Of a stretch of 4,246 bases of DNA, positions 1 through 4,169 are shown in pieces (within the stretch, counting starts at the first letter, position 1; the number at the start of each line of letters is the position of its first letter). This DNA comes from a virus. Its lineage: Duplodnaviria > Heunggongvirae > Uroviricota > Caudoviricetes. Position numbers and translations under genes: made by a program. Below the pieces are notes generated by a model, which was not told the DNA's origin, made no database searches, and saw only the letters and a program-made list of their open reading frames with translations. The stretch is from IMG/VR virus record IMGVR_UViG_2645727970_000009; one strand, written 5' to 3'.

Positions 1-105
1 TAGGATAGCCAACCATCAGATGCTGCATTTGCATAGTGCAATCTCCCCTTACTTATCCGGAGGCAATTGCAATATCTCTGTGAACTTACACAGGAGAAGC
101 AGGCT

Positions 106-261
106 ATGAAGCAGCAAAAGGCGATGTTAATCGCCCTGATCGTCATCTGTTTAACCGTCATAGTGACGGCACTGGTAACGAGGAAAGACCTCTGCGAGGT
201 ACGAATCCGAACCGGCCAGACGGAGGTCGCTGTCTTCACAGCTTACGAACCTGAGGAGTAA
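106..261 (+). CDS. hokD: Hok/Gef-family type I toxin, 51 aa small membrane peptide
   Basis: ATG at 106 preceded by AGGAG (92-96); translation MKQQKAMLIALIVICLTVIVTALVTRKDLCEVRIRTGQTEVAVFTAYEPEE matches from memory the Hok/RelF family (single TM helix, conserved C-terminal Cys and Glu-rich tail); stop TAA 259-261. The track ORF 67..261 is the same frame extended to an upstream TTG. Confidence 0.9.
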   Translation: MKQQKAMLIALIVICLTVIVTALVTRKDLCEVRIRTGQTEVAVFTAYEPEE

Positions 262-268
262 GAGACCC

Positions 269-290
269 GGCGAGGGAGAAATCCCTCGCC
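269..290 (+). promoter_or_regulatory. Perfect 8-bp stem-loop (GGCGAGGG-agaaat-CCCTCGCC) in hok 3' UTR; candidate mRNA fold-back/stability element
   Basis: Inverted repeat read directly from sequence 8 nt after the hok stop; hok-family mRNAs are known to carry structured 3' elements (fbi) that pair with the 5' end. The 5' partner lies outside the window so pairing cannot be confirmed. Confidence 0.4.
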
Positions 291-330
291 ACCTCTGATG
301 TGGCAGGCATCCTCAACGCACCCGCACTTA

Positions 331-356
331 ACCCGCTTCGGCGGGTTTTTGTTTTT
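331..356 (+). terminator. Rho-independent terminator of the hok transcript
   Basis: ACCCGC-ttcg-GCGGGT hairpin (GC stem, 4-nt loop) followed by TTTTTGTTTTTATTTT. Confidence 0.7.
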
Positions 357-369
357 ATTTTCAACGCGT

Positions 370-399
370 TTGAAGTTCTGGACGGTGCCGGAATAGAAT
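370..399 (+). promoter_or_regulatory. Putative sigma70 promoter upstream of the rem-like gene
   Basis: TTGAAG (370-375), 18-bp spacer, TAGAAT (394-399), located downstream of the hok terminator and ~80 nt upstream of the rem start. Sequence-pattern call only. Confidence 0.3.
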
Positions 400-477
400 C
401 AAAAATACTTAAGTAGCGCGCAGGGATAAGAGGGATGGTCCCTTAAAGGGGAGAGCTAATTATCCGGAAGGATTCTG

Positions 478-729
478 ATGATGAACATCGAAGAACTGCG
501 TAAAATTTTTTGTGAAGATGGCCTCTATGCTGTGTGCGTTGAAAATGGAAATCTTGTTAGTCATTACCGCATTATGTGTTTGCGAAAGAATGGGGCTGCG
601 TTAATTAATTTTGTGGATGGTCGAGTGACAGACGGATTTATCTTGCGCGAAGGTGAGTTTGTCACTTCATTACAGGCACTGAAAGAGATCGGAATAAAAG
701 CAGGCTTTTCAGCTTTTGCAGAAGAATAA
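478..729 (+). CDS. rem: Rem-like small prophage protein (83 aa), function unknown
   Basis: ORF of 83 aa with GGAAG Shine-Dalgarno 8 nt upstream; the length and the gene order hok - 83-aa gene - DUF968 gene match the hokD-rem-ydfU arrangement of the E. coli K-12 Qin prophage as I recall it. Identity is from synteny and length, not verified alignment. Confidence 0.6.
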   Translation: MMNIEELRKIFCEDGLYAVCVENGNLVSHYRIMCLRKNGAALINFVDGRVTDGFILREGEFVTSLQALKEIGIKAGFSAFAEE

Positions 730-795
730 ACTCATCTACAATCTTGCGCGGGGCTGAACTCCCGCTGAGTAACACCGTGCCACCGGAGAAAACCG

Positions 796-1074
796 ATGGC
801 ACGCAACGTAAAATATTACAATTCTGATAATTCGCCCGTTCTTGTCTGCACGCACGAGCGGTATTCTCACGCATTCAAGTCTGAATGGTTCCAACACCCT
901 CCATGCACTGAAGAGCAGGCTGAATGGATAATTCAGTGTTACCGCAGGCGCGGATACGAGGTTAAGAAAGCCCTTAGCCTCGACTACCGTCACTGGATAA
1001 TCTCAGTCAGATTGCCTTACTCCGAACGCCCACCACGTGCGTCCCGCACTTTCCAGCAACGGATCTGGAGGTAA
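796..1074 (+). CDS. Hypothetical Cys/His-rich protein (92 aa)
   Basis: ATG at 796 with GGAGA Shine-Dalgarno (785-789, 6-nt spacer); stop TAA 1072-1074 sits inside a GGAGGTAACGTG arrangement that positions the next gene's start 1 nt downstream (translational coupling). Contains several Cys and His residues in the first 50 aa (possible metal site). No recognised family. Confidence 0.5.
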   Translation: MARNVKYYNSDNSPVLVCTHERYSHAFKSEWFQHPPCTEEQAEWIIQCYRRRGYEVKKALSLDYRHWIISVRLPYSERPPRASRTFQQRIWR

Positions 1075-1075
1075 C

Positions 1076-2125
1076 GTGCGGGTATTACTTAGACCTGTTC
1101 TGGTGCCTGAGCTTGGGCTGGTGGTCCTTAAGCCGGGCCGTGAATCCATACAGATATTTCATAATCCTCGAGTGCTGGTGGAACCGGAACCAAAAAGCAT
1201 GCGTAATCTGCCATCCGGAGTCGTTCCTGCCGTTCGCCAGCCGCTGGCGGAAGACAAAACATTGCTGCCGTTTTTTAGTAACGAACGGGTGATTCGTGCT
1301 GCTGGCGGTGTTGGCGCATTGTCTGACTGGCTATTACGTCATGTTACATCCTGCCAGTGGCCTAATGGCGATTACCATCACTCTGAAACAGTCATTCACC
1401 GTTATGGTACCGGCGCAATGGTGTTGTGTTGGCACTGCGACAACCAACTGCGTGACCAGACATCGGAATCACTGGAGCTGCTTGTTCAACAAAATCTGAC
1501 AGCATGGGTGATTGACGTCATCCGTCACGCAATAAGCGGTACGCAGGAGCGGGAATTATCTTTGGCTGAATTATCCTGGTGGGCGGTCTGCAATCAGGTG
1601 GTGGATGAACTACCTGAGGCTGTATCGCGTCGTTCGCTGGGATTACCAGCGGAAAAAATCTGCTCGGTGTACCGCGAAAGCGACATCGTACCGGGAGAGC
1701 AGACCGCCACCAGCATATTGAAACAACGCACAAAAAATCTTGCACCGTTGCCTTACGCCCACCAGCAACAAAAAACACCACAGGAAAAGACGGTGGTAAG
1801 CATCACCGTTGATCCGGAGTCTCCGGAATCCTTCATGAAACGACCTAAACGTCGCCGCTGGGTAAATGAGAAATACACACGCTGGGTAAAGACACAGCCG
1901 TGTGCGTGTTGTGGTAAGCCAGCGGACGATCCTCATCATCTGATTGGTCATGGTCAGGGTGGAATGGGAACAAAATCCCACGATATTTTCACGCTACCGC
2001 TGTGTCGGGAGCATCACAACGAGCTTCATGCGGATCCGCTGGCGTTCGAAGAAAAGCATGGTTCCCAGGTTGATTTAATTTTTCGTTTTCTTGATCACGC
2101 TTTTGCAACCGGCGTGCTCGGGTAA
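1076..2125 (+). CDS. ydfU: YdfU-like DUF968 protein (349 aa from GTG 1076) with C-terminal Cys/His HNH-like motif
   Basis: Long ORF, frame open from 1037; GTG at 1076 is preferred as the start because GGAGG (1067-1071) precedes it and it gives 349 aa, the length I recall for K-12 YdfU. C-terminus CACCGKPADDPHHLIGHG...LCREHHNELH resembles HNH / NinG(Rap)-type metal-binding nuclease motifs. Start is uncertain (alternatives GTG 1037, ATG 1199). Confidence 0.65.
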   Translation: MRVLLRPVLVPELGLVVLKPGRESIQIFHNPRVLVEPEPKSMRNLPSGVVPAVRQPLAEDKTLLPFFSNERVIRAAGGVGALSDWLLRHVTSCQWPNGDYHHSETVIHRYGTGAMVLCWHCDNQLRDQTSESLELLVQQNLTAWVIDVIRHAISGTQERELSLAELSWWAVCNQVVDELPEAVSRRSLGLPAEKICSVYRESDIVPGEQTATSILKQRTKNLAPLPYAHQQQKTPQEKTVVSITVDPESPESFMKRPKRRRWVNEKYTRWVKTQPCACCGKPADDPHHLIGHGQGGMGTKSHDIFTLPLCREHHNELHADPLAFEEKHGSQVDLIFRFLDHAFATGVLG

Positions 2126-2137
2126 AAGAGGTTACTG

Positions 2138-2512
2138 ATGCGTATAGAGTTTGTTTTGCTTTACCCGCCGACGGTGAACACCTACTGGCGACGTCGTGGC
2201 AGCACATATTTTGTATCAAAAGCCGGTGAGCGTTATCGCCGGGCTGTGGCGCTTATTGTTCGCCAGCAGCGGCTGAAATTAAGCCTGTCCGGAAGGCTGG
2301 CGATAAAGATTATTGCCGAGCCACCGGATAAGCGCCGCCGTGACCTGGACAATATTCTGAAAGCGCCGCTGGATGCGCTGACACATGCGGGGTTGCTAAT
2401 GGACGATGAGCAGTTTGATGAAATCAATATCGTTCGTGCTCAGCCAGTATCTGGTGGACGTCTGGGGGTGAAGATTTACCCCATAATGCTTGAAGGGCAG
2501 GTCAAAAAATGA
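2138..2512 (+). CDS. rusA: RusA-family Holliday junction resolvase (124 aa)
   Basis: AAGAGG Shine-Dalgarno 6 nt upstream of ATG 2138; translation contains LLYPPTVNTYW and the acidic catalytic cluster PDKRRRDLDN...LMDDEQ that parallels E. coli RusA (PDRRRRDLDN...LDDAQ, from memory); conserved position immediately upstream of Q as in lambdoid nin regions. Confidence 0.85.
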   Translation: MRIEFVLLYPPTVNTYWRRRGSTYFVSKAGERYRRAVALIVRQQRLKLSLSGRLAIKIIAEPPDKRRRDLDNILKAPLDALTHAGLLMDDEQFDEINIVRAQPVSGGRLGVKIYPIMLEGQVKK

Positions 2513-3330
2513 AACTGGAAGATTTACCGAAATACTACTCCCCAAAATCCCCCGGCCTGACTGATGCATCGGCCTCAACGTCGAAAGATACGCTGAGTAT
2601 CACTGATGTGATGGCCGCGCAGGGCATGACACAGAATTGGGCTGAGATGGGGTTTTCTGCGTTCCTTGGGAAAATGGGCATTAGTATGAATGACAGAGAG
2701 CGGGCAACAGAATTGCTGACAGAATATGCACTCAGTCGGTGTGATCGCGTGGCGGCGTTAAGAAAACTCCCGGCAGAAATAAAACCGGCAGTGATGCGTA
2801 TTATGGCTTCGTATGCGTTTGAAGATTATGCCCGTAGCGCGGCGAGCAAAAAACAGTGCCCCTGTTGTCACGGAAAAAAATTTATTGAAAGCGAGGTTTT
2901 TACAAACAAGATCCAGTATCCGGATGGTAAGCCGCCAGTGTGGGCAAAGTGCACAAAAGGCGTGTATCCGTCTTACTGGGAGGAATGGAAAAAAGTTAGG
3001 GAGGTGGTAAAAGTTGCCTGTCCGGAGTGTGGAGGGAAGGGGGAGGTTTCCACCGCCTGTAAAGATTGTCGTGGGCGCGGTGTTGCCATTCATCGTGAAG
3101 AGTCGGTAAAACGTGGTATGCCTGTTATCAGAGACTGCCAGCGTTGTGGTGGTCGTGGCTATGAAAGATTACCTTCAACGGAGGCATTTAATGCCATATG
3201 TAATGTAACCGATGCCATATCTCTTGATACATGGAAAAAAACAGTTAAACGTTTTTACGATACGCTGGTGGTGCAGTTTGATATTGAAGAAGCATGGGCA
3301 GAACAACAACTGAAAAAGGTGACCAGATAG
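2509..3330 (+). CDS. Q: Lambda-Q-family late-gene antiterminator (273 aa) with expanded Cys-rich zinc-binding region
   Basis: ATG 2509 overlaps the rusA stop (ATGA). N-terminus MKLEDLPKYYSPKSP...TDVMAAQGM, central ASYAFEDYARSAA, and C-terminus TWKKTVKRFYDTLVVQ...KKVTR parallel lambda Q (MRLESVAKFHSPKSP..., ATFAYADYCRSAA, TWSRTVKPLYDALVVQ...NAVTR, recalled). Followed immediately by a pR'/qut-like site and terminator. Confidence 0.85.
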   Translation: MKLEDLPKYYSPKSPGLTDASASTSKDTLSITDVMAAQGMTQNWAEMGFSAFLGKMGISMNDRERATELLTEYALSRCDRVAALRKLPAEIKPAVMRIMASYAFEDYARSAASKKQCPCCHGKKFIESEVFTNKIQYPDGKPPVWAKCTKGVYPSYWEEWKKVREVVKVACPECGGKGEVSTACKDCRGRGVAIHREESVKRGMPVIRDCQRCGGRGYERLPSTEAFNAICNVTDAISLDTWKKTVKRFYDTLVVQFDIEEAWAEQQLKKVTR

Positions 3331-3332
3331 CT

Positions 3333-3363
3333 TTGTTGATTTTTCCCGAATCTGTGGTAAATT
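3333..3363 (+). promoter_or_regulatory. Late promoter pR'-like (Q-dependent late operon promoter)
   Basis: -35 candidates TTGTTG (3333-3338) or TTGATT (3336-3341); -10 TAAATT (3358-3363) embedded in GGTAAATTTG, matching the lambda pR' -10 context GGGTAAATTTGACTC as I recall it; located 3 nt after the Q stop. Confidence 0.55.
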
Positions 3364-3386
3364 TGCCCTAACGATGGGCGTTTTAT
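3364..3386 (+). promoter_or_regulatory. qut-like initial transcribed region with sigma70-dependent pause-inducing element (AACGATGGG)
   Basis: AACGATGGG at 3370-3378 is identical to the -10-like pause element at the start of the lambda pR' transcript (recalled as ...CAACGATGGG...). Predicted transcription start near 3370. Confidence 0.4.
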
Positions 3387-3410
3387 GCCTGACGTTAGAA
3401 GATTTTTTAC

Positions 3411-3434
3411 ACCCGTCGCCAGGCGGGTTTTTTT
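3411..3434 (+). terminator. tR'-like rho-independent terminator of the short pR' leader transcript
   Basis: Hairpin CCCGTC-gcca-GGCGGG (3412-3427, one G-U pair) followed by seven T (3428-3434), about 65 nt downstream of the predicted start. Confidence 0.7.
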
Positions 3435-3497
3435 ATGACTGAAATCACGCCAGTACAGTAAACGCGCTGGTGGTTGTGAATACCGGTCTTTCAGCTT

Positions 3498-3930
3498 GCT
3501 GGCTTTTTCGACAAGAGTTATTGGTGTGTCACGTTAACCGGAAAAAGGAAAGTTTGAGAAACGCGATCTGGCACAGGCGGTGATTAACGCCGCATACCTG
3601 GTGGCCTGTGCAGATGGTGAATGTGAGGCTTCCTAGAAAGCGAAGATCGAACAGGTACTGCGTAATCAGCCAGCGCTGTCCGCGTTTACGTCAGAAATTA
3701 ATGCGATTAGCGCAACCATTATCGGTCAGCTGGATACGAACTTTAAAACTGGTCGTCGTGCGGCGTTACGTGAGATCGAGGATGTGAAACACGATACGCG
3801 TGAAGCGGAAGATGTGCTGGATGTGGCGGTGGCCATTGCGGAGGCAGACGGCGAAATTGAGCCGGAAGAGCGCAAGGTGCTGGAAGAGATTGCCGGTGTT
3901 CTGGGGCTTCGTCTGGAGAATCACCTGTGA
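3498..3930 (+). pseudogene. TerB-family (tellurite-resistance TerB-like) gene remnant with nonsense and frame lesions
   Basis: Frame 1 from 3538 reads PEKGKFEKRDLAQAVINAAYLVACADGECEAS*KAKIEQVL...VAIAEADGEIEPEERKVLEEIAGVLGLRLENHL*, showing the paired ADG-x-acidic motifs of TerB (recalled ...VASDGVSSEEKQKM... and ...AKSDGNFDDDEKSAVREIARSLG...). In-frame TAG at 3634-3636 sits where TerB has Glu. No in-frame start exists upstream (TAA at 3535-3537); a possible N-terminal piece (GFFDKS, frame 3) ends at TGA 3555-3557, consistent with a +1 indel in the A5 run 3542-3546. 5' boundary is approximate. Confidence 0.5.
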
Positions 3931-4094
3931 CGGTAAAACTGCGCCTGGCTGTGGCTGCACTCCTGCTGTTTCTGGTGGTGATGGTGGATTTCACCAGCAG
4001 AATCATGTCGGTGCTGGCGGATGGGGGGCTGGTCTGCGGCATTGTGGTATTGCTGTGGCCGGTGATAAAAAGAAACAGCCTGCATAATGCTTGA
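3927..4094 (+). CDS. Hypothetical small hydrophobic protein (55 aa from GTG; 37 aa if ATG 3981), probable two-helix membrane peptide
   Basis: GTG 3927 overlaps the TerB-like stop (GTGA) with GGAGA (3915-3919) 7 nt upstream; translation VTVKLRLAVAALLLFLVVMVDFTSRIMSVLADGGLVCGIVVLLWPVIKRNSLHNA has two hydrophobic stretches; stop TGA 4092-4094 followed by a T7 run. Not in the ORF track because it is shorter than 60 aa. Confidence 0.35.
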   Translation: MTVKLRLAVAALLLFLVVMVDFTSRIMSVLADGGLVCGIVVLLWPVIKRNSLHNA

Positions 4095-4150
4095 TTTTTT
4101 TGTTTACTGTTTATTAAAAATACTACTGCATGGTGAATCCCCCTGTGCGG

Positions 4151-4169
4151 CTGTCTCTTGATCAGATCT
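4151..4169. repeat. Terminal inverted repeat of the IS (IS50 IE-type 19-mer)
   Basis: Exact 19/19 match to the recalled IS50 inside-end sequence; contains two GATC Dam sites. Confidence 0.7.

Follow-up and report, generated by a model that had tools for sequence, protein, structure and literature searches.

The terB gene of this window, i.e. the whole 4,246-nt stretch of DNA analysed here, is with a probability of about 90% the dead remnant of a two-gene accessory cassette, made up of a tciA-homologous TerB gene and a tciB-like DUF3927 gene, that is carried in the late region of lambdoid prophages. No complete translatable gene is left: a deletion has taken codons 1-17 together with the ribosome-binding site, and codon 46 is amber. 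Because the start is missing and the stop at codon 46 of 143 replaces an invariant residue, the window was shown to be incapable of encoding full-length TerB.

Late-region position of the remnant in a lambdoid E. coli prophage

The ORF listing, family scans and annotated near-identical records together identified the window as part of a lambdoid E. coli prophage. Its features are as follows.

106-261: hokD
478-729: rem-like gene
796-1074: 92-aa ORF
about 1076-2125: DUF968 gene
2138-2512: rusA
2509-3330, plus strand: antiterminator Q gene, 273 aa (PHROG 127/25523 'anti-termination protein Q-like', E about 1e-112)
3336-3363, plus strand: putative late promoter pR' (TTGATT, 16-nt spacer, extended -10 TGgTAAATT; inferred from sequence)
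3411-3435, plus strand: intrinsic terminator, tR'-like (GC-rich hairpin followed by a T7 run; 7-pair stem with 5 GC pairs, terminator scan)
3436-3551, plus strand: conserved post-terminator leader, not TerB coding (collinear with L005 355-576 and with L007)
3549-3552, no strand: deletion junction with AAAG microhomology
3550-3930, plus strand: TerB/TciA-like pseudogene remnant, codons 18-143 and stop
3634-3636, plus strand: amber codon (GAG to TAG) for Glu46
3784-3930, plus strand: residual 48-aa GTG-initiated ORF spanning the second ADG motif
3927-4094, plus strand: intact DUF3927/TciB-like small membrane protein gene, 55 aa
4151-4246, no strand: end of the insertion sequence ISEc13 (IS4 family), 56 bp downstream of tciB

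The Q gene, labelled 'antitermination protein' in relatives, marks the start of the late region. The pR' region was nearly identical among relatives with the same Q type; the promoter itself scored under the threshold of a consensus promoter scan and is hence labelled as inferred. The position of the terminator was kept in two related loci, L005 and L007 (UTI89). The first-pass annotation had the gene expressed from the late promoter, and the coordinates of Q and of the terminator support a position behind the Q-dependent late promoter and terminator. The remnant thus occupies a late-region moron position, 3' of Q, pR' and tR', and the relatives run on to holin and lysozyme genes.

A record from a pig E. 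coli was 100% identical across window positions 1-4150. The prophages of O55:H7 and O157:H7, including Sp6 of strain Sakai, were 99.4-99.9% identical in DNA over 3331-4150 and shared both the TAG and the deletion junction with the window (Sakai ECs_5711 region), but lack the window's ISEc13 at 4151 and its upstream rem-like gene. In such records, e.g. prophage Sp6 of O157:H7, PGAP labels the gene 'tellurite resistance TerB family protein', a pseudogene with 'internal stop'. The locus is therefore already known, as a routinely annotated pseudogene of a known phage accessory family.

An Rfam scan of the window gave a sole match, sub-threshold and unrelated to the TerB finding. This was an isrK-like (Hfq-binding sRNA) match at 270-351 (25.7 bits versus a gathering score of 50, E=0.012), located directly downstream of hokD with a terminator-like hairpin at its end.

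The interrupted frame encodes a TerB domain of the TciA type

The frame ending at TGA 3928-3930 translates as ...KFEKRDLAQAVINAAYLVACADGECEAS*KAKIEQ...AEADGEIEPEERKVLEEIAGVLGLRLENHL. With the stop read as Glu for Pfam scoring, the repaired 128-aa ORF reached 56 bits against PF05099 (cut-off 24.4, E=6.2e-15), which substantiates the TerB-like frame that had been recognised from the letters; the 97 codons 3' of the TAG by themselves gave 32.4 bits against Pfam TerB. The paired ADG-acidic motifs reported at the same time are present at 3610-3633 (ADGECEAS) and 3844-3870 (ADGEIEPEE). In a 26-sequence family alignment extending to about 51% identity, D39 and G40 were nearly invariant and D117, G118 and E124 were invariant. 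Klebsiella TerB (PDB 2JXU) was matched in sequence over residues 13-137 (E=4e-8), with the D-G-acidic motifs aligned. An NCBIfam scan returned sub-threshold partial matches only, e.g. the DjlA TerB-like region (27.6 bits versus a cut-off of 162).

The fold evidence concerns an intact relative, P0003, and not the truncated product of the window. Its AlphaFold2 model (pLDDT 88.8) was all-helical, with eight helices. A Foldseek search of the PDB with this model gave a probability of 1.0 for the chains of 2h5n alone, which we take to be a TerB-like structure (TM 0.54-0.63, at weak E-values of 0.02); the NMR structure 2JXU was absent from the top matches. By homology, the intact protein would be a helical TerB-domain protein carrying acidic motifs.

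Intact orthologues, predicted in the first-pass annotation, were found, e.g. in seven loci (L004, L005, L018-L022), and a protein database search recovered orthologues in Escherichia, Klebsiella, Salmonella, Serratia, Pantoea and Enterobacter. The intact protein matched PHROG 632 ('tellurite resistance', moron category) over positions 1-143 of 143 (E=8.8e-69). In tblastn searches the intact orthologue was 41-51% identical to P1 tciA at 100% coverage, and the protein occurred in 130 phage records, including P1, D6, SJ46, jumbo Erwinia phages, the N4-like phage Pollock, and Vibrio and Pseudomonas phages. By this homology, the terB remnant is the lambdoid homologue of phage P1 tciA.

One 28-nt terB match, in H255, lay within a gene labelled 'DUF3927 domain-containing protein' and was set aside as a small misannotated remnant beside IS elements.

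A widespread amber allele replaces an invariant glutamate

The in-frame TAG at 3634-3636 stands where the family has Glu, as had been stated from the sequence, and the single G-to-T change proposed to explain it (GAG to TAG) is supported by the GAG codon of all seven intact orthologues sampled (L004, L005, L018-L022). This residue, E46 of the 143-aa protein, was invariant in the 26-sequence alignment and aligned with a Glu in Klebsiella TerB (2JXU).

Allele frequencies were obtained from 5,426 complete E. coli genomes using 51-nt queries, with each 28-mer seed forced across the diagnostic base. The TAG allele was found in 577 genomes, at 1,006 places and in up to five copies per genome. At least 456 genomes had the GAG allele with near-identical flanks, a minimum figure, since intact alleles that have diverged, e.g. 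that of L004, cannot seed a match; with the same caveat, the TAG allele is about as frequent in complete genomes as the intact one. The full deletion junction (51-mer) was present in 502 of the 5,426 genomes.

These counts bear on whether the TAG, the A5 run at 3542-3546 or both are sequencing or assembly errors that mask an intact gene. This had been raised earlier as a general possibility, and nothing specific speaks for it. Against it, the exact 28-mers across the T of the TAG recur in hundreds of independent complete genomes, the junction 51-mer is nearly as common, and one record is identical to the window up to position 4150. An assembly error is thus virtually certain not to be the explanation and, judging from this recurrence, both lesions are genuine, widespread alleles.

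The 5' end was lost through a deletion and not through a frameshift

The first-pass annotation had found no usable start codon, which the reanalysis upholds: the interval from the in-frame TAA at 3535-3537 to the TAG contains no ATG. Its start candidates are limited to two GTG codons (3580 and 3601) and two CTG codons (3568 and 3598), all of which lack a convincing ribosome-binding site. The same annotation correctly located an A5 run at 3542-3546, and attributed the missing N-terminus to a probable homopolymer frameshift there. According to this model the gene would be near-complete, and besides the amber codon it would carry one extra base in the A run that puts its N-terminus, of the LAGFFDKSYWCVTLTGKGKFEKRD type and starting at 3498 in frame 3, out of register. 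Removal of one A does join frame 3 to the TerB frame, the leaders of L005 and L007 do have A4 at the corresponding run, and there is a loose resemblance between the frame-3 'GFFDK' and the 'GIFKK' of genuine TerB N-termini.

However, comparison with intact relatives assigned this segment to a different gene. Positions 3331-3551 could be aligned base by base with the sequence behind a Q gene of this type in L005 and in UTI89 (L007). In both, this leader ends in a Shine-Dalgarno-like GGAAAAGG(G)AAAA(A)GACATG that starts a 65-aa ORF, so that the A5 run and the Shine-Dalgarno-like AAGGA at 3545-3549 lie within the leader, in the Shine-Dalgarno region of an ORF that the window has lost. The exact 47 nt at 3495-3541, taken earlier as the N-terminal piece in another frame, were present in L005 about 1,983 nt ahead of the core of an intact terB that has its own ATG; they also occurred in UTI89, in whose fetched locus no terB is seen. 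Further, the frame-3 peptide had no BLASTP similarity to genuine TerB N-termini (MFGIFKKKTRRA..EIKKFEKRD), frame 3 likewise lacks a start codon, and native terB homology begins only at 3549. The frameshift model is hence refuted, and the remnant begins at 3549/3550 rather than at the 3498 given for the feature.

With terB homology starting at 3549 and leader homology ending at 3551, the junction falls in an AAA(G) microhomology. The intact arrangement runs Q, leader, 65-aa ORF, DNA methyltransferase, three tRNA genes, terB (143 aa, own ATG), DUF3927 and a SASA/NanS-type esterase. About 1,928 bp are missing in comparison with L005, comprising the 65-aa ORF, the methyltransferase gene, the three tRNA genes, the ribosome-binding site of terB and its codons 1-17. 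These alignments indicate that terB lost its 5' end to a deletion of about 1.9 kb and not to a frameshift. The junction was identical in all seven deletion alleles sampled (L001, L002, L006, L010, L012, L016 and the window). What is gained over the first-pass annotation is this corrected mechanism of 5' loss, together with the finding that the methyltransferase and phage tRNA genes went with it.

Two side observations concern this region. The leader at 3436-3551 (roughly 115 nt) was 94-95% conserved in well over a thousand E. coli genomes, hundreds of which matched the leader only; it carries no annotated gene or other feature and corresponds to the 5' UTR of the 65-aa ORF in intact arrangements. 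Separately, genuine homopolymer polymorphism does exist in terB, but within the part deleted from the window. The native 5' end reads ATGTTTGGTATTTTTGGTAAAAAA(A)GCC, with A6 or A7 (L003, L011, L013-L015, L017, L019 and L020 versus L018), at a site about 45-50 nt upstream of the terB core. In A7 alleles the ATG is out of frame, and PGAP annotates these alleles as intact from a TTG 3 nt downstream (142 aa).

The amber codon most likely preceded the deletion

Two independent lesions account for the present state of the gene: a G-to-T transversion that turned the invariant Glu46 codon into amber, and an illegitimate deletion of ~1.9 kb between short A-rich microhomologies, which fused the untranslated leader, 3' of the Q-dependent terminator, to terB codon 18. 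The amber codon most likely arose first, since TAG is found on alleles with a native 5' end as well as on those with the deletion, and since none of the seven deletion alleles sampled lacks it. A further seven TAG alleles (L003, L011, L013-L015 and L017 among them) kept the native 5' end behind tRNA genes. From the same comparison, the deletion most likely happened once, on a TAG background. TAG was present on several haplotype backgrounds, pointing to recombination among prophage copies; the decayed module would have spread through such recombination and through clonal expansion, e.g. as part of Sp6 in O157:H7.

Decay beyond these lesions was shallow. Compared with the intact allele of L020 (WP_001434745.1), codons 18-143 of the window encode an identical protein save for E46*, i.e. 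the other 125 codons all match, and the DNA has 10 synonymous differences. Some TAG alleles carry private non-synonymous changes (S60Y, H142Y), which fit relaxed constraint, although the numbers are small. None of 14 TAG alleles (the window and 13 further loci) had a second stop or frameshift, a result that is uninformative at a divergence of at most about 2%.

We asked whether the interrupted gene is still used, either through amber read-through or suppression, or through a functional C-terminal fragment, namely the 48-aa ORF from GTG 3784 or the 97 codons after the TAG. The frequency of the allele (about 10% of complete E. coli genomes, with multiple copies in some, on several haplotypes and otherwise undamaged) and the 14 alleles free of additional disabling mutations could be read in its favour. 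The 48-aa ORF, moreover, is annotated in Sakai (ECs_5711, 'TciA/TerB-like protein') and has its own PHROG, 3920, a 48-aa profile. Set against this, the 5' truncation took the start codon and ribosome-binding site and left read-through nothing to extend. ARAGORN called no tRNA, suppressor or otherwise, in the window, and the related loci had only CAT, Arg, Lys, Thr and Gly anticodons. The 48-aa piece covers only two helices of an eight-helix domain, and H142Y, private to TAG alleles, falls within it; it is probably an annotation by-product and not a real gene. The alleles are also too little diverged for the absence of further lesions to inform, and their frequency is explained by hitch-hiking with successful prophages and clones, e.g. 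O157:H7. Continued use of the gene is therefore improbable. It is similarly improbable that the amber allele has been kept for reasons beyond hitch-hiking, whether for a useful residual product, such as a C-terminal half of the TerB domain or a little read-through protein, or because silencing TciA while keeping TciB benefits the prophage or host. If such silencing did pay, the deletion would have put the late terminator immediately in front of tciB.

The downstream tciB-like gene is intact

In contrast to terB, the adjoining gene at 3927-4094 is complete and is annotated as intact in relatives. Its product matched PF13064 (E=1.5e-16) and PHROG 1470, 'TciB-like inhibition of cell division or resistance to colicin' (E=1.5e-29). 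The GTG start overlaps the terB stop (GTGA) on the same strand and is preceded by a GGAG about 9 nt upstream; by its sequence, the gene should still be translatable from the late transcript. This transcript would start at the Q-modified late promoter (3336-3363) and read through the terminator at 3411-3435.

The region that natively precedes terB, which the window has lost, was analysed in the intact locus L005, where there was no consensus promoter upstream of terB and where terminator-like hairpins were located at 2295-2312, between the last tRNA gene and terB, and at 3284-3303, after tciB. A hairpin between the last tRNA gene and terB, together with the lack of a consensus promoter in intact relatives, suggests that the cassette depends on antiterminated late transcription. 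The intact TerB-domain protein would act together with its small membrane partner and be expressed upon antitermination by Q.

The GTGA overlap is such that a one-base change could fuse the two genes. A 197-aa protein of E. coli PA11 (P0004) has both the TerB and the DUF3927 Pfam domains and is apparently a TerB-TciB fusion.

Relationship to P1 tci, ter operon and Stx phage modules

The lambdoid cassette resembles P1 tciA/tciB in its full-length TciA similarity (143 residues) and in the DUF3927 gene that follows, with its match to the 'TciB-like' PHROG. This copy differs from that of P1 in its lambdoid, Q-dependent late leader and in being a pseudogene, and no tciC-like third gene was present in the window between the tciB-like gene and the IS. 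With the TerB of terZABCDE (Klebsiella, 2JXU; IncHI2 plasmid R478) it shares PF05099 and the paired D-G-acidic motifs, at a distant level of similarity. Unlike that TerB, it is a stand-alone gene paired with a gene for a small membrane protein. The ter-operon genes terZ, terA, terC, terD and terE were all absent from its neighbourhood, which consists of Q, DUF3927 and the IS in the window and of tRNA genes, DUF3927 and the SASA esterase in intact relatives (Q ... tRNA(CAT)-tRNA-Arg-tRNA-Arg - terB - DUF3927 - SASA/NanS-p esterase - holin). By sequence and context, therefore, the protein belongs with the TciA-type TerB-domain proteins and is not the TerB of terZABCDE. The slot 3' of Q is presumably the one that holds stxAB in phage 933W; relative to Stx-converting lambdoid phages, the equivalence of position was deduced from the 933W layout, and the cargo is unrelated.

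The evidence for the phage-exclusion or tellurite-resistance role suggested earlier is distant homology to the TerB of ter operons, and such a role stays conjectural. A search of PADLOC-DB 2.0 gave only a weak partial match to PDC-S48 (E=0.0025, 35 residues) for the TerB protein and none for DUF3927. The tci names themselves go back to homology with terB of the IncHI2 ter cluster and not to experiments on these genes (PMC4319500, PMC9603915). In the literature covered, tciA, tciB, DUF3927 and ECs_5711 were the subject of homology remarks only (PMC4319500, PMC9603915), with no functional experiments.

By itself the locus matters little, as it is an ordinary pseudogene in a well-studied class of E. 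coli prophage, and the dead copy sheds no light on the role of the TciA/TciB cassette. The biological interest lies in the intact family, since intact cassettes of the tciA/tciB type are common in very different phages, from P1 to the jumbo Erwinia phages.

In L004, PGAP annotates a 'tRNA-OTHER' (2107-2187) among the phage tRNA genes just upstream of the intact terB. ARAGORN did not call this element and it is probably a degenerate tRNA.

ISEc13 insertion and variable occupancy of the slot

ISEc13 begins at 4151 with the IS50-like end CTGTCTCTTGATCAGATCT, inserted after ...CCCCCTGTGCGG (flank 4125-4150); IS-free relatives read ...CTGTGCGGAGGGGCAATCAGC at this site. The same insertion point was used in a prophage of E2348/69 (L009 3030-3050 and 4583-4603), where the element is flanked by an 8-bp duplication, CTGTGCGG. 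The site may thus be a preferred target in lambdoid backbones. In the same E2348/69 locus (2911-3041) the tRNA-Arg gene and the ISEc13 site have no terB-DUF3927 cassette between them, so that presence of the cassette at this slot is variable.
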